Assembly (NCBI GenBank): GCA_001791715.1 | Contig: MGFD01000030.1 | Coordinates: 9,246-41,609, forward strand | DNA: 32,364 bases | Reading direction: 5' to 3' | DNA from: Candidatus Uhrbacteria bacterium RIFOXYB2_FULL_45_11 | Lineage (GTDB): Bacteria > Patescibacteriota > Patescibacteriia > UBA9934 > GWF2-40-263 | Shown here: positions 1,727-31,618 of the stretch, one piece after another | How the letters are laid out: each line of letters begins with the position of its first letter | Numbering within the stretch: the first letter of the stretch is position 1 | The notes under the pieces: generated by a model | What the model saw: the letters and a program-made list of their open reading frames with translations, nothing else | Database searches by the model: none | What the model was told of the DNA's origin: nothing | Program-made: the position numbers and the translations under genes

Positions 1727-1808
1727 AGGGGAAGGTTTGAAATGTCGGAAACCTGCCTGCCGGCAGGCAGGGGTCGGAGAGGTTTGAATGTCGGAAAGGT
1801 CGAGGTGT
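1727..1808 (-). repeat. leader element H1: 9-nt units (TCGGAAAGG / TTTGAAATG family) flanking a perfect 20-nt palindrome, directly abutting the ATG
   Basis: The + strand reads cat|AGGGGAAGG|TTTGAAATG|TCGGAAACC, then CCTGCCTGCCGGCAGGCAGG (1752-1771), then TCGGAGAGG|TTTGAATG|TCGGAAAGG|TCGAGGTGT. The same units occur at 25646-25681. Confidence 0.8.
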
Positions 1809-1814
1809 GAGGGG

Positions 1815-1820
1815 ATTATA
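1815..1820 (-). promoter_or_regulatory. candidate -10 box (TATAAT) for the DHFR-like gene
   Basis: The reverse complement of attata at 1815-1820 is a perfect TATAAT. A weak -35 (GTGCAA) lies 17 nt upstream. This would make H1 the whole 5' UTR. Confidence 0.35.
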
Positions 1821-1884
1821 TAGCAATAAATCTGAGTTTGCACGAGGGTTTTTTGAATGGTGGTAATCAGGCTAACATGGGAAA

Positions 1885-3615: not shown

Positions 3616-3687
3616 GGAGAGTGTGAGATCGGAGGTCTCGCCCAACATCCCGCTTCGCGGTCTGTCCAAACCTTCGGTTTGGCGCCA
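3616..3687 (+). repeat. R2: copy 2 of the structured tRNA-like repeat
   Basis: Identical to R1 except for one A/G change and a 3-nt CTC indel. It ends in GCCA, and similarity to the R1 trailer continues to about 3710. Confidence 0.85.
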
Positions 3688-9428: not shown

Positions 9429-9506
9429 GTGTCATTCCGACCGACCAAAGGGAGCGGAGGAATCTCGCGTGTACGAGAGATCCCTCGGCTGCGCTCGGGA
9501 TGACAA
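9429..9506 (+). repeat. P1: GTCAT...ATGAC palindromic element directly upstream of the next start codon
   Basis: It shares tgtcat..., atctcgcgtKtacgWgagatccctcggctgcgct and cgggatgaca with 27163-27272. Outer arms gtcattccga / ctcgggatgac. Confidence 0.8.
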
Positions 9507-10687: not shown

Positions 10688-10764
10688 GCGCTCGTAGCTC
10701 AGCTGGATAGAGCATCAGCTTGCGGAGCTGAGGGTCGTAGGTTCAAATCCTGCCGGGCGCACCA
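10688..10764 (+). tRNA. tRNA-Arg (anticodon GCG), CCA encoded
   Basis: GCGCTCG TA GCTC AGCTGGATA GAGC A TCAGC TTGCGGA GCTGA GGGTC GTAGG TTCAAAT CCTGC CGGGCGC A CCA. A20, C35 and G36 fit Arg identity. Confidence 0.85.
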
Positions 10765-10772
10765 TAACAATT

Positions 10773-11102: not shown

Positions 11103-11120
11103 CGTGTCGATTCGTCGGGA

Positions 11121-11157
11121 CTGAGGGTCGTAGGTTCAAATCCTGCTGGGCGCACCA
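11121..11157 (+). repeat. duplicated 3' half of tRNA-Arg (direct repeat of 10728-10764)
   Basis: ctgagggtcgtaggttcaaatcctgcYgggcgcacca. 36 of 37 positions are identical to the 3' part of the intact tRNA. Confidence 0.9.
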
Positions 11158-11164
11158 CAAAAAA

Positions 11165-17110: not shown

Positions 17111-18505
17111 TTAGCAGTGTGCGGGAAACGGACAATTTGGATAACTGCATCGACAATAGGTGTCTGCTTTACTTTTTAGCTCAAAGTGCCAGATTTCTTC
17201 TGCGTATCTTACAAAGCCGGCTTGTGTCATGATTTGCGACAAGAGTTGCGCACCATCTTTGTATTTTTGGTTTTGTTGATTGGTGGTGTTAAAGGATGGA
17301 TCTGTAAGAGCCGTACTTCCTTTTTTCAACATGATGTCGATTGCAATACCGCTTCCGTGATTGGATCCACCTGGATAGGCGATTGCTGTTCCGATGCCGG
17401 CGATCTTTTTTTCATCTCCAGTTGCAATGACATCGCAAACCATTTCAATTTGTCGCTTGAGTGGACGATAGGCTGAAATAAGATGAATGGTATAAGCGCT
17501 ATCCATGGACTGTGCAATTTCTCCTGCTTTTTTTAACGCATCTTGCACTTCTTTTGTCACTTGTCCTTTTGGTCCGCTTCCACCTTCATTTACAAAACCG
17601 GGTGCATTTGGTGCTTTTGAAACAAGATTCGGATCGATTGTTTTTGGATTGCTTGATGGCCATGTGTTTTTATCCGTCGCACAAAGTGTTTTACATGCTT
17701 CGGGGTTGCCGCAAACACGTATAGAGCTTGCACTTATTCCACTTGAAGCCATTTGTTCGTCCGACACAACATCTCCTTTGTGTTCTGGAACTTCGACCGT
17801 TTGTACATTTTGAAGTTCAATCGTTTTCATGAGGGTGAGTTGTGGATTGGATGTATACAAAATAAGATAAACCCCAAGAAGCAGGACAAGCCCTGTGAGG
17901 GCGTTTGTGATGCGTGTTTTTCCTTTAGAAACATCCCCGCCACTTGCGGCCATCACATATTGCAATCCTCCAACCATCACCATGACGATTGCGATGGTGA
18001 TGGAGGCGAAAATGAGGAATTTATAGACAGCCGATAGGTAATCAGCGAGGAAGGATGACTTTACAGATGTGGTCGTTGCGATGGCTTTTGAAAAGGAGAG
18101 ACCTGGAATGGGAACGTTGAGGATTGGGGTCGTGGTGGCAGAAGGAGTTTTTGAAGCGGAGGTGTCTGAGCTTGAATCGGTTTTTGATGCAAGAAATGCA
18201 TTATGTTTTTTTTGACAGGAGGATGCAAGAATTTCACCTTCCGTACCATCTGCAAATTCACTTGATGCGAAACTTTTTCCGACGTCTTTTACACAAACTT
18301 CTTTACAACTGTTTGTAGATTGTTGTGAGACAGAAAGAGAAACCGCGCGACAATCTGTGTCTTTTGTTGTGCACACGCATGTTCCGTCTGCAAACGCAAA
18401 CGAGGATGGAAGTGAAAAACCCATCAAGACAAAAAAGAAGATGAGATGTTTTGTGAAACGAAAAATAGAAGCAAGATTATTTTTGTGCAGCAAGTTCGTC
18501 TGCAA
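17111..18505 (-). CDS. exported protein: the same Cys-rich and T4SS-pilin-like module fused to a VanY/M15B-type D-Ala-D-Ala carboxypeptidase domain
   Basis: DGTCVCTT..DC; TPILNVPIPGLSFS; IVMVMVGGLQYVMAA; NPQLTLMKTIELQNVQTVE. C-terminus has SAYRPLKRQ, GGSNHGSGIAIDI and EEIWHFE. The start is uncertain (TTG 18505 or 18493) and overlaps the dsbA-like stop. Confidence 0.75.
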   Translation of the reverse strand: MQTNLLHKNNLASIFRFTKHLIFFFVLMGFSLPSSFAFADGTCVCTTKDTDCRAVSLSVSQQSTNSCKEVCVKDVGKSFASSEFADGTEGEILASSCQKKHNAFLASKTDSSSDTSASKTPSATTTPILNVPIPGLSFSKAIATTTSVKSSFLADYLSAVYKFLIFASITIAIVMVMVGGLQYVMAASGGDVSKGKTRITNALTGLVLLLGVYLILYTSNPQLTLMKTIELQNVQTVEVPEHKGDVVSDEQMASSGISASSIRVCGNPEACKTLCATDKNTWPSSNPKTIDPNLVSKAPNAPGFVNEGGSGPKGQVTKEVQDALKKAGEIAQSMDSAYTIHLISAYRPLKRQIEMVCDVIATGDEKKIAGIGTAIAYPGGSNHGSGIAIDIMLKKGSTALTDPSFNTTNQQNQKYKDGAQLLSQIMTQAGFVRYAEEIWHFELKSKADTYCRCSYPNCPFPAHC

Positions 18506-19133
18506 TCGCTTTTGTTAAATCATTCGCAGAAGGTACGCCCACAATGGATGTGCTGTTGATAAAAAGCGTTGGGGTTGCGAGGATTCCCAAATTCAGAGCC
18601 TCCTGAAGATTTTTTTGCACAATGGGTAATGTATCTTTTGAAGAAAGACATTTTGAGAACGTTGTTTCATTTAATCCAAGTTCTGTGCCAATTTGTGTAA
18701 ATTGTGTTTCGGATAAGTATGTTTGTCGATCAAACAAGGCAGATGCATATTCCCAAAATTTTCCTTGGCGCGCGGCACAGTGTGCGGCAACGGATGCGCT
18801 TGTTGCGTTTGGGTGTGCGGAATCGTTTGGCATGTCTTTCCAAACAAAACGTACATCATTTGGAAACGTCATGAGAGCGACATCGATAATCGGGTTGAGT
18901 TGTTTACAGGCCGCACACTCAAAATCGGAATAGACAACAAGAGTGACTTTTGCCTTTGGAGCTCCGCGTATCGGATCAACAAACGTGACGCTTGGGGTTT
19001 TTAGTGTGGCAGAATTTGTGTTCGTTATTTTTGGTTTTGGAAGCGGAATGGGTTGTGTGCGAATGAAAAAAAACACAAAAACCATGACGGTTAAAAAGCC
19101 AATCACGAGATATGCAAGGAGACGATCGCGCAT
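18477..19133 (-). CDS. DsbA-family thiol:disulfide oxidoreductase, membrane-anchored
   Basis: From ATG 19133: MRDRLLAYLVIGFLTVMVFVFFF (TM segment), FECAACKQ (CxxC) and a thioredoxin-fold remainder. The upstream 27 codons in the ORF track read through element H2. Confidence 0.8.
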   Translation of the reverse strand: MRDRLLAYLVIGFLTVMVFVFFFIRTQPIPLPKPKITNTNSATLKTPSVTFVDPIRGAPKAKVTLVVYSDFECAACKQLNPIIDVALMTFPNDVRFVWKDMPNDSAHPNATSASVAAHCAARQGKFWEYASALFDRQTYLSETQFTQIGTELGLNETTFSKCLSSKDTLPIVQKNLQEALNLGILATPTLFINSTSIVGVPSANDLTKAIADELAAQK

Positions 19134-19255
19134 AGGAATGTTTGAGGTACAGATTACAGATAAGACATACAGATATACAGATGGGAAAAAAGCAGACGTG
19201 CTCTCCGCCTTCATTTGTATATCTGTATGCCGCCATTTGTAATCTGTACCTCAAA
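19134..19255 (-). repeat. intercistronic element H2: TACAGAT-type heptamer arrays forming a long inverted repeat, abutting the dsbA-like ATG
   Basis: Arms at 19141-19184 and 19212-19255. An outer 18-bp and an inner 13-bp perfect helix are separated by an internal loop. Junction on the mRNA strand: CATTCCT-ATG. Confidence 0.8.
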
Positions 19256-19258
19256 TGT

Positions 19259-20506
19259 TTACTTCAACTTAATAAGCTTAAGCTGTCCGGAAAAGGCGTC
19301 TGTGTAATATAAGGAGGAACCGTCTGCGCTTACGGAAAGATTTGACATGGTTGTGTCTCTTTCTGGAATGGCGACAACTTCGTTGCGACCGTTTGTGAGA
19401 TTGAGTTTATAAAGCGTGTCCGGACGGTTTTCATAAAGGGTTCTTTGTAATCCGGCATTGCTTGGAAGGTTTTGCGGTACGGCACAGTAGACAATTGTTT
19501 CTGAACTCCATGTACATTTATCAACCCATGTATTGATGCCAAGGCTGTGTCGATTTTCTCCCATACTTGCCGATGTTCCGTTCACAAGCCACAAGAGTGG
19601 CTTGCCTTGTGAATAATCGCCATAAACGGAATAGAGAATCGTTTTTCCGCTCGGGGACCAGGAAGGGGAAAAACCAAATCCCTCTACCACAAGTCCTTTG
19701 AAATTTTCTTGATTTTTTCCAACCGGATAAATCACCTTTGTATCAAATCCAGATGTGCTGTTGTTTCCGACAATGGATGACGTGTCGGCAAAGGCGATCA
19801 CTTGATCGTTTGGAGACCAGCTGACATCTACCTTGTCCGCATTTTCTCCGAGGGCCTGAACGGAAGTGACGTTTGAACCGTTGTCGTTTGAAAGTACGAG
19901 CCAGCGATTGTTTGGATCGAGCGCAAGGCTTTTTGCGATCAAGTTATCTGATGACGGAGAAAATTCTACGTCTTCCCAGTGTTTTGGAAGCGTGACTTGT
20001 GATTGTGTTTGAAAATTGTAAACGATTTTTGAATCATCCGGAAAAACCATGACTGCTTTTTCTGCATCGCGATTCCATTCAACACTTTGAACGTTTGGAA
20101 ATGTTTGATTTGAAAGTTTTACGATATTTCCATCTTTATCGATGGTATAAAAAAATCCATCATCTTCATTATAAAAATTGATTTTGTTTCCGTCTTTGCT
20201 CAGTGTTGTATTTTGAACCGGGGCTGATGTGAGCGTGATGGTTTTTGTGATTCCTCCATCAGCAATACTTGCAGCCTCTGGAAGCGTACCGTCATTTGTT
20301 GTACTTAATCCGTTTCCTGATCCAGGAGTTCCGTCAAGAGAAGGGGTAAGAGAACCTGTTGGGGTCTCTGTTGTTGAGACGGGTTCGCCGTTAGACGTTG
20401 TGCTTGGACTTTCCGTAAAAAAGACAATATACATGGCAAGACCAATCACAATGACGGACCCAATGAACCCAATGATGAGTAAGATGCGTTTTGGACGTTC
20501 TTGCAT
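19259..20506 (-). CDS. TolB-like PD40 beta-propeller repeat protein with an N-terminal TM anchor
   Basis: WSPNDQVIAF, WSPSGKTILY and FSPSSDNLIA repeats; an N-terminal hydrophobic helix. Confidence 0.7.
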   Translation of the reverse strand: MQERPKRILLIIGFIGSVIVIGLAMYIVFFTESPSTTSNGEPVSTTETPTGSLTPSLDGTPGSGNGLSTTNDGTLPEAASIADGGITKTITLTSAPVQNTTLSKDGNKINFYNEDDGFFYTIDKDGNIVKLSNQTFPNVQSVEWNRDAEKAVMVFPDDSKIVYNFQTQSQVTLPKHWEDVEFSPSSDNLIAKSLALDPNNRWLVLSNDNGSNVTSVQALGENADKVDVSWSPNDQVIAFADTSSIVGNNSTSGFDTKVIYPVGKNQENFKGLVVEGFGFSPSWSPSGKTILYSVYGDYSQGKPLLWLVNGTSASMGENRHSLGINTWVDKCTWSSETIVYCAVPQNLPSNAGLQRTLYENRPDTLYKLNLTNGRNEVVAIPERDTTMSNLSVSADGSSLYYTDAFSGQLKLIKLK

Positions 20507-20565
20507 ATGTGTAAGGGCGGGTCTTGTGCCCGTCCTGTTTCGTTATAAGGAAAAAACGTGAAGGA

Positions 20566-21471
20566 TCAAAATAATTTGCTGATCCCGAAGCCAACAAGAA
20601 GCGCTGGAGAAGCCATGAGAAGAAGCATCAAAACTTGAACGGCAAACAGGATAACAACAATGGTAATGACAATGAGATCGGCCATGATGACCATTCCTTG
20701 GAGGATGATTCCATTTTTATCAATGGGCATTGGGATCGGATCCCAAGAGAGTCTGCCAATGACAGGATCTTTTCCTTTTTTGAGCCATGTTCCATACACC
20801 ATTTCTACGTTGAGCCAACCTAGGCTGAGCAGGTGAATAAAAATGGTGACAACAAGACCAGCTCCTCCTGTTCCTAAATCAAGGGCCGTTGAAATAAAAT
20901 TTGCTCCTGCATTTGCGGCTTTTGGAACCATTTTTTTGGCTGCTTGTTTGGCAGCATCTTGTGCGGCTCTTGTTGCATCGGCTTGTTGTGCGCGCGCATT
21001 GTCATTTTGTGGAAGATCCGCCGCATCTATGAGTGCGCCTTTAATGCGCACAAGCTGCATGAACGACTGAAAAGAAACTCGTCGTTGCTCTTCTTGTTCT
21101 TCTTCCTCTTGATCCTCGTCCTCATTTTCTTGCGCGCGTGCCGCCTGTGCGGGTTGTCTGAGTGGATTTTGTGCTTGTAATTGATTCGTTCGTAATGTGG
21201 ATTGCCTTTGTAGGGGAGACTGCATGGGTGCTCTTGGGGTTTGCGATGATCCTGTGCGCATGATTTGATCGATGTTTGATTCACGATTCATGCCAGGAAT
21301 ACGATTTTGAGCGAAGACACTTTTACGTTCCGCAATACTGCGTGTCTCTTGCGAGGTTGTACTTCCTGCAGACTTAATCATTTGCCCACCAGCTTTGGCG
21401 ACACCTTGTGTGAGTTTTGCGGCGCCCTGTCCCATTTTGACAGCGCCTTGTGCGACAGCTTGTAAGGCCAT
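20566..21471 (-). CDS. hypothetical low-complexity protein (Gln/Ala-rich, acidic stretch) with C-terminal TM helices
   Basis: 301 aa. The start lies 2 nt after the clpC stop. Contains ENEDEDQEEEEQEEQ and a hydrophobic C-terminal third. Confidence 0.55.
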   Translation of the reverse strand: MALQAVAQGAVKMGQGAAKLTQGVAKAGGQMIKSAGSTTSQETRSIAERKSVFAQNRIPGMNRESNIDQIMRTGSSQTPRAPMQSPLQRQSTLRTNQLQAQNPLRQPAQAARAQENEDEDQEEEEQEEQRRVSFQSFMQLVRIKGALIDAADLPQNDNARAQQADATRAAQDAAKQAAKKMVPKAANAGANFISTALDLGTGGAGLVVTIFIHLLSLGWLNVEMVYGTWLKKGKDPVIGRLSWDPIPMPIDKNGIILQGMVIMADLIVITIVVILFAVQVLMLLLMASPALLVGFGISKLF

Positions 21472-21473
21472 GT

Positions 21474-23951
21474 TTATTTTGATTTACGAATCGCGAGTTG
21501 TTTTTTCTCGATCGTAAGGGTGAATTTTTTGTTTTTTTCTTGTTTCAGCAGTCGTTCTGCGAGAATGGATTCCACGTGTGTCTGGATGAGTTGTCGGACA
21601 GAACGCGCGCCGGATTTTGGATCGAGTTTTTCAATCAAGTGGCGCGTGACAACATCCGGAATGGAAAGATGCACACCTTGTTCCATCATGCGGGTGGAGA
21701 ATTCATCTAATTGTTTGCGACAGATTTCGGACAGCACTTCATTCGACAATGGATTGAAGACACAGGTGTGATCAATACGATTCAACAGTTCTGGGCGGAA
21801 ACGTTCTTTGAGTTCTGTCTCGATGTCGCTCGACAAACGCTTCGAAGTCTCAACATCTCCTCCCGAAAAACCAATGCCGCCAGATTCGAATCGTTCAAGT
21901 CCGACGTTCGATGTGAGAATCACAATCGTGTTTCTAAAGTTTACCATTTTTCCGCTTGCGTCACATAGTTCTCCTTCTTCTAAAATTTGCAAAAGCAAAT
22001 TTTGCACATCACGGTGTGCTTTTTCAATCTCATCAAATAAAACGACGGCGTACGGTTTTTGTCGAACGCGATCCGTCAGATTCGCTTGTTCTTTGTAGCC
22101 GATGTATCCCGCCGGCGCACCGATCAACTTTGACATGGTGAAGCCTTCCGAATATTCCGACATGTCGAGGCGGATGAGGTGTTTGGATGTGTGGAAGAAT
22201 TGTTGAGCGATTCCGCGAGCAAGTTCTGTTTTTCCAACACCGGATGGGCCGAGGAATAAGAACGATGCAAGGGGACGCGCCGGATGCGCAACGCCCGTCT
22301 TTGCGCGCTTAAGCGCGTTTGCAACACGAGCAACAACCTCGGTTTGTCCAAGAACATGAGAAGCAAGTTTTGTTTCAATGTCCGCAAAGCTGGATTGATC
22401 TTTTGCGAGCAGATCATTGAGTGGAATGCGCAGCATGCGTGAGATTACGCGTGCGACATCTTCGTGATCAATCACGAGTCCGCTTGTTTCTTCTGTGGCG
22501 AAGGTGTGTGCTTTCAGTTCGCTCTGAAGGAGTTCTTCTGTTGCTTTGAGGTGCACTGCGTCCAAAAAACGTTCTTCAATCACCGCTTGTCGTTTGTCGT
22601 TCTTTAAAAGTTCGATTTGTTTTTCGATTGCTTTACGCTTTTCCTGTGGGCGCAGTTCCGTTGCGTGAATGCGTGCGGATGCGGCGGCTTCATCTAAAAG
22701 ATCAATCGCTTTGTCTGGGAGTCGGCGATCTGTGAGATATCGAGTTGAGAGTTTTACTGCATGTTCAATGGCGGCAGGTGCGATGCGTACTCCGTGAAAC
22801 GATTCGTAATGCGGCGCGATACCTTGAAGAATTTCGATGGCTGCTTCAACGGTTGGTTCTTCGACGGTGACAGTTTGAAAACGTCGTTCAAGTGCGCTGT
22901 CGGATTCAATATGTTTTTTATATTCCGCCTGCGTGGTTGCGCCAATACAATGAATGTCACCGCGTGCGAGGGCGGGTTTTAAAATGTTTGCGGCGTCCAT
23001 GGATCCGGAGGCTGCACCTGCGCCGACGATGGTGTGTAATTCATCGATAAATAAAATAACATCATCGGATTTACTTGCTTCGTCGATGAGTTGTCGCAAG
23101 CGTCCTTCAAATTCACCGCGATACATGGTTCCGGCGACGAGGAGCGCGAGGTCAAGTGCGAATACACGTTTGTTTTGGAGAAGGGGAGGAACCGTTCCTT
23201 CAAAAATACTTTTTGCAAGACCTTCAACAACGGCAGTCTTTCCAACACCCGGTTCGCCGACTAACAATGGATTATTTTTTGTACGGCGACACAAGATTTC
23301 CATCACGCGTTCAATCTCGGCTTCGCGCCCAATCACCGGATCGATCTTCTTTTGCATTTCGGGAGACGTAAGCTCTCTGGAAAAATAGGAGAGTGCTTGG
23401 AATTTTTCTGGTGGTTTTTCTTCTGGTGTTGCGGTTGCGATTTCTTGAAGCAGTCCGAGTTCGTCGGGTTTCATGACTTCTGTCATTTCTGGAAACTTGG
23501 AAGTATTTTTAAGAACAAGAGAGAGCTGTTCACGCAAATATTTTAAATCGATGTTTTGATCTTTCAGAAACGTCAAAATAGACGGAAGTTCAATCTGCGC
23601 GAGTCCAGAGAGCAAGTGTTCTGTGCCAATGTAGCGGTGGCCGTAAATGTTTGCGGTGAGAACGGCTTTTTCAACTGCGCGTTTTGCGTCATCGGATAAA
23701 TGAAGAATCATTCCGTCTGCGGTTGCAGGGAGTGTTTCTGTGACACGAATACTTCCGGCGATTTTTTTAAAATCCGCTTGTTGCATTCCTACCTTTTTTA
23801 AAATCTCTGCAGCGATACATCCTTTTTGCGTGCCAAGCGCCCAAAGCAAATGTTCCGGCAAAATGACCTGTTCATCTGTTTCAACCGCAAAACACAGCGC
23901 TCGCGTGAGCACTGTTTTCAAGTTCGAGGAAAATTTGTCGATAATGTCCAT
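21474..23951 (-). CDS. clpC: Clp ATPase, ClpC-type (two AAA+ modules, Clp_N repeat, short middle domain)
   Basis: GEPGVGKTAV and GPSGVGKTEL Walker A motifs. 825 aa, ClpC-like rather than ClpB-like in length. Confidence 0.85.
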   Translation of the reverse strand: MDIIDKFSSNLKTVLTRALCFAVETDEQVILPEHLLWALGTQKGCIAAEILKKVGMQQADFKKIAGSIRVTETLPATADGMILHLSDDAKRAVEKAVLTANIYGHRYIGTEHLLSGLAQIELPSILTFLKDQNIDLKYLREQLSLVLKNTSKFPEMTEVMKPDELGLLQEIATATPEEKPPEKFQALSYFSRELTSPEMQKKIDPVIGREAEIERVMEILCRRTKNNPLLVGEPGVGKTAVVEGLAKSIFEGTVPPLLQNKRVFALDLALLVAGTMYRGEFEGRLRQLIDEASKSDDVILFIDELHTIVGAGAASGSMDAANILKPALARGDIHCIGATTQAEYKKHIESDSALERRFQTVTVEEPTVEAAIEILQGIAPHYESFHGVRIAPAAIEHAVKLSTRYLTDRRLPDKAIDLLDEAAASARIHATELRPQEKRKAIEKQIELLKNDKRQAVIEERFLDAVHLKATEELLQSELKAHTFATEETSGLVIDHEDVARVISRMLRIPLNDLLAKDQSSFADIETKLASHVLGQTEVVARVANALKRAKTGVAHPARPLASFLFLGPSGVGKTELARGIAQQFFHTSKHLIRLDMSEYSEGFTMSKLIGAPAGYIGYKEQANLTDRVRQKPYAVVLFDEIEKAHRDVQNLLLQILEEGELCDASGKMVNFRNTIVILTSNVGLERFESGGIGFSGGDVETSKRLSSDIETELKERFRPELLNRIDHTCVFNPLSNEVLSEICRKQLDEFSTRMMEQGVHLSIPDVVTRHLIEKLDPKSGARSVRQLIQTHVESILAERLLKQEKNKKFTLTIEKKQLAIRKSK

Positions 23952-23967
23952 AAAGGTGGAAATATTG

Positions 23968-24070
23968 GTAGATACGGATTACAGATGAATACAGATAGGG
24001 ATGACGTATCTGAAAAACGTTTTTCGGAACCGAATATCTCCATCTGTATTCATCTGTAATCCGTATCTAC
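23968..24070 (-). repeat. intercistronic element H3: perfect 29-bp inverted repeat between htpX and clpC
   Basis: gtagatacggattacagatgaatacagat (23968-23996) pairs with its exact complement at 24042-24070. The 45-nt spacer holds the 14-nt palindrome gaaaaacgtttttc (24012-24025). Confidence 0.9.
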
Positions 24071-24076
24071 ACACGT

Positions 24077-24973
24077 TTACAAACCAGCTTTCTTTAATCT
24101 CGCGATACGTTCTTCGATTGGTGGATGAGTGCTGAACATCTGTTCAAACTTTTTTGTGACGTGTGGGTCGAATGGATTTGCGAGGAAGAGGTGGGCTGTT
24201 GCGTGGTTTGCTTTTGACATGGGTTGGTCTTGTACGCTGATTTTTTCGAGTGCGCGAATGAGTCCATCTGGATAACGTGTGAGCAAACATCCGGATGCGT
24301 CTGCGAGATATTCGCGTTGGCGTGAAACCGCGAGTTTGATAAGTTGGGCAAAAATAGGGGAGAGAATCGCAAGCACGATTCCAACGATCAGGATGATTCC
24401 CGCACTACTGTTGTTGTCATTGTCTCGAGAGCCGCGGCCAAAGAAAAACGATCGTGTCATCATGTCAGATAAAAGCAAGACGACTCCGACAAGAACAACC
24501 ACAATGGTCATGACGCGAATATCGTAATTTCCAATGTGTGAGAGTTCATGCGCAAGAACACCTTCCAATTCTTGTCGATCGAGCGCTTGAAGGAGTCCGG
24601 TTGTGACGGCGACCGACGCGTGTTTTGGATCTCGGCCTGTTGCAAAGGCGTTCATGGCAGAGTCTTGGATCACGTAAATTTTTGGGGTTGGGAGTCCGGC
24701 GGTAATCGCGAGATTCTCGACGAGTCGAAACAGTTCTGGGTTATCTTGTTTTTCGATCGGTTTTGCACCAGACGCGGCAAGCGCAACAGAATCACCTTGA
24801 AAATATCCAACAAGCGTCATGACGGTGGAAATAATCACGGCAAGAAAAATGCCAGAAAAGGCATCACCCATCCAAAGACCAAATGCATAGCCGAGCAAAA
24901 TAATCACGACCGAGAAGAGTGAGATCAGAAACCAGGTTTTGTATTTGTTCGCAGAGATTTGGTCGTAGAGCAT
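24077..24973 (-). CDS. htpX: zinc metalloprotease HtpX
   Basis: VLAHELSHIGN (HExxH), four TM segments and C-terminal STHPPIEERIARL. Confidence 0.9.
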   Translation of the reverse strand: MLYDQISANKYKTWFLISLFSVVIILLGYAFGLWMGDAFSGIFLAVIISTVMTLVGYFQGDSVALAASGAKPIEKQDNPELFRLVENLAITAGLPTPKIYVIQDSAMNAFATGRDPKHASVAVTTGLLQALDRQELEGVLAHELSHIGNYDIRVMTIVVVLVGVVLLLSDMMTRSFFFGRGSRDNDNNSSAGIILIVGIVLAILSPIFAQLIKLAVSRQREYLADASGCLLTRYPDGLIRALEKISVQDQPMSKANHATAHLFLANPFDPHVTKKFEQMFSTHPPIEERIARLKKAGL

Positions 24974-25081
24974 AGGGGGAAGTAGAAAGTAGAGAGTAGA
25001 AAGTAGAGAGGAGATAGAAACGTTTTTTAAAATAGCTGCACCAACTAAAACCTTTCTACTTTCTACTTTTCCCTTTCTACT
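24974..25081 (-). repeat. intercistronic element H4: GTAGARA heptamer arrays in inverted orientation, filling the lemA-htpX spacer
   Basis: cat|AGGGGGA|AGTAGAA|AGTAGAG|AGTAGAA|AGTAGAG|AGG. The 31-nt arms at 24981-25011 and 25051-25081 pair at 26 of 31 positions. The spacer contains GAAACGTTTTTT. Confidence 0.85.
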
Positions 25082-25084
25082 TTT

Positions 25085-25636
25085 TTAAAACTTTACTTCT
25101 GGAACCACTTTTTCTGCTTCGTCCATGTCAAAAAATTCTTTTGCGGTAAAGGCAAATGTTCCGGCGATCATGTTGACCGGGAAGGATTGTAAACGTGTGT
25201 TATATTCACGAACGTTTCCGTTGTAAAAGCGACGTGAAGCTTGGATTTTGTCTTCCGCGTCGCGGAGTTCGTGTTGGAGTTGCAAAAAGTTTTGTGAGGC
25301 TTGAAGAGCTGGGTAGCTTTCTGAAACCGCAAACAAAGACTTGAGAGTGCTTGTCAGTACGCCTTCAGCTTGTGCATGTTCTGGAAGCGTGTGCGCGCCC
25401 ATGGCCGCGGAGCGAGCTTTTGTCACGTTTTCAAAGACGCTTGATTCGTGTGAAGCGTATCCTTTTACGGCATTCACCAAGTTTGGAATCAGATCATAAC
25501 GGCGCTTCATTTGAACTTCAATGTCAGACCACGCTTCGTCTACACGGTTTCTGAGCGTGATAAGACCGTTATATGATAAGATGAGCCAGAGTCCGACGAG
25601 GGCGAGAACAATGATAACGATCCAAAGGGTAGACAT
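25085..25636 (-). CDS. lemA: LemA family protein
   Basis: N-terminal TM, then YNGLITLRNRVDEAWSDIEVQMKRRYDLIPNLV..., typical of LemA. Confidence 0.9.
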   Translation of the reverse strand: MSTLWIVIIVLALVGLWLILSYNGLITLRNRVDEAWSDIEVQMKRRYDLIPNLVNAVKGYASHESSVFENVTKARSAAMGAHTLPEHAQAEGVLTSTLKSLFAVSESYPALQASQNFLQLQHELRDAEDKIQASRRFYNGNVREYNTRLQSFPVNMIAGTFAFTAKEFFDMDEAEKVVPEVKF

Positions 25637-25743
25637 AGGGGAATGTTGGAAAGGTTTGAAATGTCGGAAAGGTCGGAAAGGAAACGTTGTAAAAACGTTT
25701 TGGATTACCTTTCAAACATTTCAGACCTTTCCGACCTTTCAGA
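25637..25743 (-). repeat. leader element H5: four plus four inverted 9-nt units (TCGGAAAGG family), abutting the lemA ATG
   Basis: AGGGGAATG|TTGGAAAGG|TTTGAAATG|TCGGAAAGG|TCGGAAAGG, then a 26-nt spacer (AAACGTT-GTAAA-AACGTTT), then CCTTTCAAA|CATTTCAGA|CCTTTCCGA|CCTTTCAGA. Confidence 0.85.
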
Positions 25744-25760
25744 CTAAGTATTACGTTTAA

Positions 25761-25789
25761 ATTCTACGAAATTTACAAGCTTTCGTCAA
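25761..25789 (-). promoter_or_regulatory. sigma70-like promoter for lemA (TTGACG-17 nt-TAGAAT)
   Basis: Minus strand: TTGACG (25789-25784), a 17-nt spacer, TAGAAT (25766-25761). It places H5 inside the transcribed leader. Confidence 0.5.
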
Positions 25790-25794
25790 AAAAT

Positions 25795-27138
25795 ATGGAG
25801 ATACCAAAACACATTTTTCGTGCCTATGATATTCGCGGACTTCTCGCTGAAGTGACGCCTGATATTGCTCGCGTAGTCGGGATGGCGCTTGTTTCAAAAA
25901 CAGGGGCAAAAACCGTGATTGTCGGGCGCGATATGCGTGCAACGAGTCCAGAGCTTGAGCAAGCGGCGATCGAAGGAATTACGTCGATGGGCGCAAACGT
26001 CATCGCAATCGGACTTTGCAGTACATCGATGTTCAATTTTGCGGTTTCAAGCCAAGAACATATTGACGCTGGCATCATGATCACCGCCTCACACAACCCA
26101 CCAGAATTTAATGGAATGAAAATGGCACTCGCAAGCGGATTGCCGATTTCTGGTCTTGAGATTCTTGAAGAGGTGGAGCGTTCCCCCTCTCCTTTCGAAG
26201 GAGAGGGCAGGGGAGAGGTGTCCCATCAAGATATTCTTGGTGCTTACATCGACAAATGTCTCGCTGTCGAGAACTTACCCGATCTCTCTGGAACAAAACT
26301 CGTTATCGACTACGGAAACGGCATGGGAGCAATGTCGGTTCGTGAACTTTGTAAGCGTCTGAAGATCGAAGTGGTCGAACTTTATCCAGAACCAGATGCA
26401 CGTTTTCCAAACCATGAAGCGAATCCGGCAAAAGAAGAAACACTCGCGGATGTGAAAGCGGCTGTTGTTCGAGAAGGCGCAGATTTCGGAATCGCCCTCG
26501 ATGGCGATGCAGATCGTGTAGGGTTTATCGACAATGAAGGAGTTTCGTTGCGCGGTGATCTTACGCTCGCGCTTCTCGCGAAAGAGACGCTCTCGAGAAA
26601 ACCTGGATCAAAAGTTGTTGTCGCACCAAATCAAAGTTGGACCACGTTTGATTCGATCACAGAAAACGGTGGCGTTCCTCTTGAATGTCGTATTGGTCGC
26701 AAATTTGTCGTCGAGGCGGTGCAAAAACAAGGTGCGGTTCTTGGTGGGGAGGTTTCGAGCCATTTCTTCTTTGAAGAATTCCATGGGCTTGAAGCCGTCG
26801 ATCATGCGATCGTTCGCATCTTGTCGATCTGGAAACAATCCGGACAATCATTCGCCGATCTCGTGCGTCCATATCGCGCATATACAAATAGTGGCGAGGT
26901 GAATATTGAAGTGCACAATAAAGAACAGGTTCTGAGCAAGCTCGAACAGTATGCGGGGACAGCATCGAAAGTGAATAAGCTCGATGGAATTCGCTGTGAA
27001 TTTGATCGTGACTGGTGGTTTATTGTGCGACCATCGAATACGGAGCCATTACTTCGATTGATTGTGGAAGCAAAGACGCCGGAACTGATGGTACAGAAAC
27101 GCGACGAATTGGTTGCTTTGATTCAGACGAACGGGTAA
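25795..27138 (+). CDS. phosphomannomutase/phosphoglucomutase (alpha-D-phosphohexomutase)
   Basis: GIMITASHNPPEFNGMKM active-site loop, DGDADR metal loop, GGEVSSH sugar loop. 447 aa. Confidence 0.85.
   Translation: MEIPKHIFRAYDIRGLLAEVTPDIARVVGMALVSKTGAKTVIVGRDMRATSPELEQAAIEGITSMGANVIAIGLCSTSMFNFAVSSQEHIDAGIMITASHNPPEFNGMKMALASGLPISGLEILEEVERSPSPFEGEGRGEVSHQDILGAYIDKCLAVENLPDLSGTKLVIDYGNGMGAMSVRELCKRLKIEVVELYPEPDARFPNHEANPAKEETLADVKAAVVREGADFGIALDGDADRVGFIDNEGVSLRGDLTLALLAKETLSRKPGSKVVVAPNQSWTTFDSITENGGVPLECRIGRKFVVEAVQKQGAVLGGEVSSHFFFEEFHGLEAVDHAIVRILSIWKQSGQSFADLVRPYRAYTNSGEVNIEVHNKEQVLSKLEQYAGTASKVNKLDGIRCEFDRDWWFIVRPSNTEPLLRLIVEAKTPELMVQKRDELVALIQTNG
26183..26220 (+). repeat. in-frame palindromic mini-element D within the phosphohexomutase gene
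   Basis: CCCCCTCTCCTT-TCG-AAGGAGAGGG-C-AGGGGAGAGGTG, translated as SPSPFEGEGRGEV. Same architecture as the recG copies. Confidence 0.8.
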
Positions 27139-27162: not shown

Positions 27163-27272
27163 TGTCATCTTGAGCGACCGTTTTATGTCTAGTCGAAAGA
27201 TCTCGCGTTTACGTGAGATCCCTCGGCTGCGCTAAGAGGCTGCTTCGCAGTGCGCTCCGCTCGGGATGACAC
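27163..27272 (+). repeat. P2: GTCAT...ATGAC palindromic element directly upstream of tyrS
   Basis: It shares both ends and a 33-nt core with P1 and carries an extra 26-nt internal segment (aagaggctgcttcgcagtgcgctccg). It ends 8 nt before the tyrS ATG. Confidence 0.8.
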
Positions 27273-30431: not shown

Positions 30432-30459
30432 AGCCGAGCCTGTGAGGGCTTGGCTTTTT
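30432..30459 (+). terminator. terminator hairpin T1 (identical copy at 31590)
   Basis: agccgagcc-tgtgag-ggcttggct followed by T-run. Confidence 0.75.
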
Positions 30460-31589: not shown

Positions 31590-31618
31590 AGCCGAGCCTG
31601 TGAGGGCTTGGCTTTTTT
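31590..31618 (+). terminator. terminator hairpin T2 (identical to T1)
   Basis: agccgagcctgtgagggcttggctttttt. Confidence 0.75.

Follow-up and report, generated by a model that had tools for sequence, protein, structure and literature searches.

Inverted heptamer arrays in the lemA-htpX spacer of a Candidatus Uhrbacteria bacterium: a probable member of a fast-turnover class of repeat-built hairpins

In Candidatus Uhrbacteria bacterium RIFOXYB2_FULL_45_11, the genes lemA and htpX are separated by a 111-nt spacer (24974-25084) that consists of two heptamer arrays in inverted orientation. This spacer, here termed E2, was analysed within a stretch of 32,364 nt (contig MGFD01000030.1, positions 9,246 to 41,609; hereafter the window) of the host genome, the host being an uncultured member of the Candidate Phyla Radiation (CPR)/Parcubacteria with its source in Rifle groundwater. 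We conclude with considerable confidence that E2 is a pair of inverted simple sequence repeat (SSR) arrays, a GTAGAAA array and its pyrimidine complement, which has replaced the usual junction of 6-8 nt and which belongs to a class of periodic-arm hairpins with fast turnover. Judged by sequence comparison, this class fills stop-to-start gaps in Uhrbacteria, in other CPR bacteria and in other uncultured bacteria. It is tentatively proposed, by analogy and at somewhat below even odds, that E2 affects its own mRNA in cis, by way of either RNase III-type processing or the access of ribosomes, and to the favoured explanation as a whole we assign a probability of approximately 0.45. The junction and its genes are laid out as follows.

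25085-25636, minus strand: lemA, 183 aa, identified by open reading frame (ORF) call and Pfam PF04011 LemA
25051-25082, minus strand: 5' arm of E2 on the mRNA, purine-rich heptamers with GTAGAAA units, starting 2 nt past the lemA TAA
25012-25050, minus strand: central 39 nt of E2 (apical region), containing AAAAAACGTTTC
24980-25011, minus strand: 3' arm of E2 on the mRNA, pyrimidine-rich heptamers CTCTCTAC / TTTCTAC
24974-24979, minus strand: unpaired CCCCCU abutting the htpX AUG, a C-rich, G-poor start context typical of the lineage
24077-24973, minus strand: htpX, 298 aa, M48 zinc protease, Pfam Peptidase_M48, its product 100% identical to the HtpX of RIFOXYB2_FULL_45_11
21474-23951, minus strand: clpC-like AAA+ chaperone gene, 825 aa

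The original prediction held that inverted heptamer arrays fill the lemA-htpX gap and that their arms pair at 26 of 31 positions, and both points were borne out: an inverted-repeat search returned arms of 32 nt each (24980-25011 and 25051-25082) with 84% complementarity and a separation of 39 nt, and Tandem Repeats Finder (TRF) detected the heptamer period with 4.0 copies at 24980-25007 (90% match) and 4.6 copies at 25052-25083. A 14-nt super-period (95% match) was found by TRF in the pyrimidine arm only, without a counterpart in the other arm. On the mRNA strand the junction reads UAA-AA[AAGUAGAAAGGGAAAAGUAGAAAGUAGAAAGG]...AAAAAACGUUUC...[CCUCUCUACUUUCUACUCUCUACUUUCUACUU]CCCCCU-AUG, and the sense strand folds at -36.6 kcal/mol (z = -4.6), with none of 200 shuffled sequences folding equally well or better. 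The predicted stem of approximately 34 bp ends 6 nt before the htpX ATG, with the 2 nt past the TAA and the CCCCCU ahead of the AUG remaining unpaired in the fold. No ORF was found in the spacer, and a mini-ORF in the loop (UUG GUG CAG CUA UUU UAA after GAAAGG) was dropped as a candidate feature, being without counterpart in the other elements. E2 is identical across 10 independently assembled metagenome contigs and is therefore real rather than an artefact of assembly.

Four hairpins of this build (E1-E4) are present in the window, ahead of lemA, htpX, clpC and dsbA, together with one leader that carries a pyrimidine array only. All four lie on the mRNA strand of a single run of co-directional genes, with fold energies of -37 to -65 kcal/mol and z-scores of -4.6 to -10.4, and their repeat units differ, measuring 9 nt in E1, 7 nt in E2, about 10 nt in E3 and 7-8 nt in E4. 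The spacers adjoining lemA, htpX and clpC are all occupied by a hairpin (3/3), as against roughly 1/17 of the other window spacers. The sister elements, and the promoter-like site upstream of lemA, are located as follows.

25761-25789, minus strand: sigma-70-like promoter TTGACG-17-TAGAAT upstream of lemA
25637-25745, minus strand: E1, lemA leader hairpin, arms 25642-25673 and 25707-25738, 9-nt units GGTCKGAAA / CCTTTCCGA
23952-24076, minus strand: E3, htpX-clpC hairpin, arms of 46 nt (23957-24002 and 24036-24081), 85% complementary, TACAGAT-type units
19134-19258, minus strand: E4, hairpin between a PD40-repeat gene and a dsbA-like gene, TACAGAT units
1727-1830, minus strand: half element, leader of a RibD_C/DHFR-family gene (1181-1726), without a purine arm

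For E1, TRF gave a period of 9 with 3.8 and 4.2 copies, the fold reaches -42.2 kcal/mol (z = -6.3) and the loop holds two AACGTT motifs. E3, which has GAAAAACGTTTTTC at its tip, folds at -64.8 kcal/mol (z = -10.4) and E4 at -63.6 kcal/mol (z = -10.2), and the two match at 87/110 alignable positions (79%). E4 had not been listed in the original prediction, according to which the architecture and an AACGTT-type loop are common to the lemA leader, E2 and the htpX-clpC element with differing repeat units; that claim is confirmed, and the 8-mer AAACGTTT is present in all three loops (24015-24022, 25018-25025 and 25693-25700), these being three of its five occurrences in the window. The 8-mer is not conserved in the matching loops of most relatives, and its sharing by E1, E2 and E3 could reflect common ancestry or a binding site. 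The true start of the dsbA-like gene is probably the ATG at 19133, the called ORF running wrongly into E4, and the dsbA orthologues are 218 aa in length. The dsbA call (18477-19214, minus strand) is overextended by 27 codons into the hairpin, as is clpC in the relatives L093/L094 by 24 codons, and both overextensions are annotation artefacts due to the hairpin elements. The half element carries the E1 pyrimidine array (TTTCCGACATTTCAAACCTT..CCCCT-ATG) twice in direct orientation around the GC palindrome CCTGCCTGCCGGCAGGCAGG, the copies constituting direct-repeat family D1 (96% over 23 nt). A GTG start at 1843 for the RibD_C gene is an overcall by the ORF finder, and the leader of this gene ends in CCCCT-ATG as the E1 array does.

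The promoter-like site upstream of lemA (10/12 matches) was the top site in a scan of positions 18900-25900, in which no promoter or terminator call fell within E2 or E3. The site is kept in relatives and the leader 3' of it varies, and it is likely to be the promoter of a lemA-htpX-clpC transcript. Since the sole good promoter-like site lies upstream of lemA and none was found inside E2 or E3, E2 is likely to be co-transcribed with the operon from the lemA promoter.

The age of E2 was assessed through orthologous loci chosen by their HtpX relatives. An HtpX profile scan of genome contigs gave, among the matches listed, relatives at 63% identity or below; close relatives were retrieved individually, and their lemA-htpX spacers are as follows (HtpX identity to the window in brackets).

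L091/L092 (96%): 8 nt
L102 (88%): 8 nt
L093-L096 (86%): 6 nt
L099 (85%): periodic hairpin of 111 nt, whose 8-nt unit, AGTCAAAA, is not that of E2
L101 (84%): 112-nt GC-rich hairpin of another type
L097 (83%): 59 nt, small hairpin
L103 (81%): 18 nt

The notion that such arrays extend to orthologous spacers fails for the three nearest lineages, whose lemA-htpX spacers (8, 8 and 6 nt) contain no arrays, and survives in so far as hairpins, unrelated to E2, are present in L099, L097 and L101. E2 is thus not conserved at this junction, pointing to recent gain or repeated loss, and because the spacers of the closest relatives measure 6-8 nt it is regarded as a young and rapidly changing insertion and not as a conserved regulator. 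Occupancy of the other junctions of these loci is likewise variable among relatives, and pyrimidine-only arrays abut the ATG at the htpX-clpC junctions of L099 and L097 and at the groES-groEL junction of L031.

Turnover is also apparent between strains of the window species, where the lemA leader occurs as two unrelated-looking alleles with 9-nt units GTCTGAAAG and GCTTGAGAN, E1 being replaced by a different array (E1') in 7 of the 10 strain contigs (L002, L003, L005 and L007-L010). Comparison of L001 with L002 revealed a single mismatch in 3.2 kb of flanking sequence (about 99.97% identity) as against 35 mismatches plus indels in the lemA leader of approximately 115 nt, which indicates that the allele switch probably occurred through cassette replacement or ectopic conversion and not through point mutation. 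The E1' leader matches the element upstream of dsbA in L099 at 88/105 positions. A second, GC-rich repeat family (ATCTCGCG..GAGATCCCTCGGCTGCGCT / GTCATTCCGAC..GGGATGAC) was observed at 9462-9495 and 27200-27233 of the window, upstream of two genes. Its full-length hairpins of approximately 110-200 nt occur in L099 (9170-9300), L102 (5575-5690) and L101 (1040-1150), and this MITE-like family (MITE, miniature inverted-repeat transposable element) fills lemA, htpX and clpC spacers of relatives.

Beyond these loci, a metagenome scan for AGTAGARAGTAGARAG returned at least 120 contigs, and among the matches listed about 14 contigs carry inverted GTAGAGA/GTAGAAA/GTAGCGA hairpin arrays, which for the most part begin right after a stop codon and stop shortly ahead of an ATG; the GC content of these contigs is 37-58%. 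The same listed contigs contain additional periodic hairpins with other units, forming 34 clusters as against 3 in shuffled sequence. Between the orthologous L117 and L170 the array differs in size (3 versus 7 units), with both arms changed in parallel. The genes downstream of the periodic hairpins in the metagenome sample are diverse, and the flanking genes include what we take, from N-terminal sequences only, to be GreA and RecO-like, AccD-like and UbiA-like proteins. A survey of 80 other CPR htpX loci revealed periodic hairpins that flank htpX on either side in L011, a Parcubacteria metagenome-assembled genome (unit AAATWCG; HtpX 62% identical), that occupy htpX junctions in L018, L053, L054 and L055, and that lie in the groES-groEL gaps of L042 (1582-1665), L058 (371-483), L049, L077 and L120 (2230-2349), the units in these gaps being TACGAAT, AGTTCATAA, AAGTCNNN and others.

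The purine arm comes first in 31 of the 33 compositionally skewed elements (reverse order in 2), and the arm beside any downstream ATG is therefore pyrimidine-rich whichever strand is read. The purine-5'/pyrimidine-3' order was withdrawn as a signal of the gene strand, since a palindrome reads alike on both strands. Three detectors of differing strictness gave differing lists of hairpin positives; in the cleanest automated test of a link to proteostasis, 7 of 8 positives adjoin LemA, HtpX, ClpC or GroES/EL against a background of 133/235 spacers (Fisher p = 0.07), and the enrichment at htpX and chaperone genes is suggestive only. Our literature searches turned up no account of hairpins that are made of inverted repeat arrays and bridge cistrons in CPR bacteria; the ingredients, namely start-codon SSR arrays, palindromic repeats between genes and SSR hairpins processed by RNase III, are known already.

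The start-codon context of E2 is shared with the lineage at large. The original prediction emphasised that htpX is not preceded by a Shine-Dalgarno (SD) motif, which is true but not special, given that an SD-like 4-mer is present in just 3/26 window genes. The array-to-ATG gap in E2 is 6 nt and the leader is without a canonical ribosome-binding site (RBS); upstream bases in the window comprise 15% G compared to 25% overall, and position -1 is T in 59/72 genes (82%) of related loci. The anti-SD motif is reported to be absent from about half of Parcubacteria 16S genes (PMC9297842). The lack of an SD before htpX is a lineage-wide property not particular to E2. Leaders across the window and in L091-L103 contain 14-15% G, many of them ending in CCCCU-AUG or CUCCU-AUG, with a clear AAGGAGG in a handful only. 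A GC mini-hairpin (GGGC..ACAAG..GCCC) followed by TACA(C/A)AT-ATG was observed at 20507-20545 (minus strand) of the window and in the lemA leader of L093/L096, and this mini-hairpin recurs ahead of different genes in different genomes.

The arms of this class most probably enlarge and alter by slippage of 7-10-nt units, copies being exchanged or replaced between sites, and the pyrimidine arm prolongs the G-poor, C-rich leader that is found before most start codons of this SD-poor lineage. In the favoured explanation of its action, E2, transcribed within the lemA-htpX-clpC mRNA, would fold into an imperfect double-stranded stem of approximately 34 bp, which would set the lemA stop beside the htpX AUG, leave CCCCCU-AUG alone single-stranded and hide about 30 nt of the upstream CU-rich leader. 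RNase III usually needs roughly 22 bp, and a stem exceeding this length would suffice as its substrate. Translation of htpX may then depend on cutting of the stem by RNase III, as in the heptamer-repeat hairpin of Haemophilus influenzae hmw; alternatively, a ribosome terminating on lemA may open the base of the stem. It is possible that the hairpin also sets the stability of both halves of the mRNA, and changes in repeat number or sequence could provide a heritable tuning of htpX output.

A number of observations weigh against a function of this kind. In a strand-symmetric alignment of the arm mismatches of 30 elements, sense G·U (52) was not in excess of A·C (59; p = 0.57), the corresponding values for E2 being 3 and 4; for E1, E1' and E2 it is the antisense strand that gives the better fold; no repeat-number polymorphism in E2 was detected among the 10 contigs; and the 6-8-nt junction of close relatives implies that E2 is dispensable. 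An apparent G·U excess (53 versus 33 A·C) obtained with RNAfold-defined arms was set aside, as that definition of the arms favours G·U. In view of the lack of a wobble excess, the arms show no sign of selection on an RNA helix, whether compensatory or through wobble, and the complementarity of the arms looks like a legacy of their DNA origin and not like the product of compensatory selection. The argument that a structure retained with divergent units denotes a functional RNA was consequently not sustained, the mismatches being strand-neutral and the spacer measuring 6-8 nt in the nearest lineages, and the suggestion of a protein-binding scaffold was likewise not supported, as units vary within one genome and neither a CtsR nor a CIRCE consensus was found.

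Rfam 15 at gathering score recovered three tRNAs only in the window, with no hairpin match, and in a permissive Rfam search the hairpins matched only miRNA-precursor models, far below threshold, as generic long hairpins would. CIRCE (TTAGCACTC-N9-GAGTGCTAA) had 0 matches in the window at up to 3 mismatches, and the CtsR box (RGTCAAA-NAN-RGTCAAA) had chance-level matches only, none of them in the operon. The attC core sites GTTRRRY / RYYYAAC are lacking at both ends of E2 on either strand, and the genes flanking E2 are, unlike an attC cassette, housekeeping genes that are syntenic in all relatives. A phage database gave chance matches of 25 nt only. HutP-like (UAG-N4)x3 and CtsR-like heptads were dropped as candidates, as they fit some units only.

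Among the rival explanations, a strong one is that E2 is a neutral or selfish repeat, a by-product of slippage plus template switching or ectopic conversion with no regulatory role, tolerated since self-folding keeps stop and start adjacent and keeps G-poor sequence by the ATG. We hold this to be somewhat unlikely. Patchy presence and absence among close relatives would be expected from it, as would the diverse flanking genes of the metagenome sample, the independent drift of the arms (with the super-period in one arm only) and the strand-neutral mismatches, which over 30 hairpins comprise 152 transversions and 111 transitions. It accounts less readily for the recurrence of such hairpins, with unrelated units, at the same few junctions (lemA leader, lemA-htpX, htpX-clpC, dsbA and groES-groEL) in distant CPR genomes, for the occupation of all three lemA/htpX/clpC spacers in the window when roughly 1/17 of the others is occupied, and for the 31 to 2 preponderance of the purine-first order. 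A second rival is a dedicated CPR stress-operon regulator, in which the ribosome-loading leaders of proteostasis genes (lemA-htpX-clpC, groESL and dsbA) would be masked by the hairpins until these are opened on demand, whether through heat, through regulated RNase III or through a Csp-like RNA chaperone or helicase that binds pyrimidine heptamers. That reading, which we consider distinctly unlikely, draws on the hairpins beside htpX in L011 (both sides), L018 and L053-L055 and between groES and groEL in L042, L049, L058, L077 and L120, on the 7/8 automated positives and on a window without a CIRCE or CtsR operator to serve instead. The enrichment is weak, however, as 133/235 spacers adjoin such genes anyway (p = 0.07), E2 is lacking in the closest relatives, and elements of the same kind elsewhere precede unrelated genes. 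Opening by heat fares no better: the predicted unpaired probability at -30 to -11 is flat at 0.05-0.30 across 10-55 °C (0.12-0.16 for E2), and a melting RNA thermometer was rejected after partition-function folding at 10-75 °C, which predicted no opening below about 65 °C.

Two further readings were considered. Insertion of a transposase-driven mobile element resembling a MITE, a repetitive extragenic palindromic (REP) sequence or a REPIN would explain why sequence-related copies are present at different junctions and genomes, and E2 does resemble REP dimers in being intergenic, about 110 nt long, hairpin-forming and placed between unidirectional ORFs (PMC3733652), its units even containing GTAG, the tag of one REP superfamily. 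We nevertheless judge this very unlikely, as there is no target-site duplication and no empty-site remnant, the entire 8-nt spacer having been replaced, and as the arms are plain GTAGAAA/GTAGAGA heptamers that lack the internal stem-loop of a REP body (6-13 bp, beside GTAG). The copies are moreover few and diverse where many near-identical ones would be anticipated (the 32-kb window contains no near-identical copy of E2), and neither the window nor the neighbouring loci yielded a transposase, REP-associated tyrosine transposase (RAYT), reverse transcriptase (RT) or Y1-transposase domain. Alternatively, E2 might modulate transcription of the operon as a binding-site array, iteron- or operator-like with the AAACGTTT palindrome as its core, or as a supercoil-dependent cruciform. 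The presence of this palindrome in the E1, E2 and E3 loops (3/5 window occurrences), the position of E1 between a -10 box and an ATG, where operators are frequent, and a complementarity that appears to be maintained at the DNA level are compatible with such a role, which becomes hardly probable when it is considered that relatives have not kept the palindrome in the equivalent loops, that the units differ among elements of one genome, that E2 and E3 lie inside a transcription unit without promoters of their own and that no regulator gene is adjacent.

Of the systems studied by experiment, the nearest is the 5' UTR (untranslated region) of hmw1A in H. influenzae, where a G-rich arm and an (ATCTTTC)n array form a hairpin that is cut by RNase III, and both expression and the dynamics of the repeat are dependent on this (Rapun-Araiz et al. 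2025, PMC12721329). The two have in common a pyrimidine-rich heptamer array as one arm of a long imperfect hairpin, a purine-rich partner, a location between a promoter or upstream gene and a start codon, action at the mRNA level (shown for hmw1A, proposed for E2) and an evolutionarily labile repeat number (for E2, across its class). They differ in that the pyrimidine array of hmw1A is the left arm and its partner a non-repetitive G-rich tract, whereas in E2 both arms are arrays, the pyrimidine arm is on the right and abuts the ATG, and the hairpin bridges two cistrons. Variation of repeat number between strains was not encountered in E2 (10 identical contigs), and variation within the class is confined to L117/L170 and E1/E1'.

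The closest descriptive parallel is the TAACTGA heptamer arrays near start codons of Beggiatoaceae, Cyanobacteria and Bacteroidetes, whose function is unknown and for which a post-transcriptional role has been proposed (MacGregor 2015, PMC4679880); long SSRs of 5-11 nt have been treated more generally (Mrazek 2007, as cited in PMC4679880). In both, tandem heptamers are placed no more than a few nt from the start codon and canonical RBSs are scarce, and the pyrimidine-only half elements are of this kind. The TAACTGA arrays, however, employ one heptamer genome-wide in direct repeats, with one indirect repeat reported, whereas the units of E1-E4 differ from each other within the 32 kb seen and mostly have an inverted partner copy. 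REP, REPIN and bacterial interspersed mosaic element (BIME) sequences and Correia-type MITEs are intergenic doublets of approximately 100 nt that are co-transcribed and are thought to affect mRNA stability or processing (PMC3733652, PMC3116915). Like E2, they are hairpin-forming doublets between unidirectional genes with a patchy distribution between strains, but a REP is a short, GC-rich stem-loop that is tagged by GTAG or CGTC and occurs in many near-identical, RAYT-linked copies, whereas the E2 family is few and diverse.

RNA thermometers are familiar from heat-shock leaders (ROSE, fourU) and from the 8-bp-repeat thermosensor of Neisseria meningitidis cssA, and CIRCE/HrcA and the heptad-repeat operators of CtsR serve chaperone and clp genes. 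E2 is reminiscent of the former in placing a hairpin directly upstream of a heat-shock-type start codon, and tandem short repeats can join such a stem; it differs in having no SD to mask, a stem predicted to be far too stable and no conservation among orthologues. Inverted or heptad repeats ahead of clpC and groESL-type genes are the point of likeness to the CIRCE and CtsR operators, the consensus of which is absent here, and the units vary within one genome.

Other repeats of the window were also noted. The 3' half of a tRNA-Arg at 10723-10770 is duplicated (90% match) 393 nt downstream at 11116-11163, bracketing a 109-aa ORF, and the duplication suggests att sites belonging to a small element that has integrated here, or to what remains of it. 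A 71-nt direct repeat (97% match) is located at 2568-2638 and 3616-3686, one copy adjoining a tRNA-Ser and the other overlapping the start of a Peptidase_M15_4 ORF, and two consecutive genes are each followed by the same 28-nt terminator-like hairpin (AGCCGAGCCTGTGAGGGCTTGGCTTTTT), at 30432-30459 and 31590-31617.

The widest interpretation would be that repeat-built hairpins constitute a general, sequence-independent post-transcriptional switch for the proteostasis operons of SD-poor Parcubacteria (lemA-htpX-clpC, groES-groEL and dsbA), the purine array masking a pyrimidine-rich ribosome-loading leader until it is released by RNase III, a terminating ribosome or a heptamer-binding RNA chaperone. 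We regard this as rather unlikely; if true, such a switch would stand in for the HrcA/CIRCE and CtsR protein-operator heat-shock circuits, with a set-point that is rapidly evolvable through the arrays. The present findings would become notable on confirmation either of the tie to chaperone and protease operons or of a part played in SD-independent translation.

CPR bacteria are uncultured, and their gene control and SD-independent translation initiation are almost unexplored. The class described here is recognisable and easily searched for, as a purine array, a loop and a pyrimidine array in a stop-to-start gap, and it is present in many metagenomes; on the practical side it identifies a setting in which gene callers overextend ORFs into hairpins. 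Even if the class is neutral, it still offers a strain-level marker and a clean case of the birth of palindromes from repeats. It provides a handle on the role of G-poor, C-rich leaders, on a possible part of RNase III and intercistronic double-stranded RNA in setting the protein ratios within operons of these organisms, and on the manner in which SSRs make and destroy regulatory structure over very short evolutionary times.

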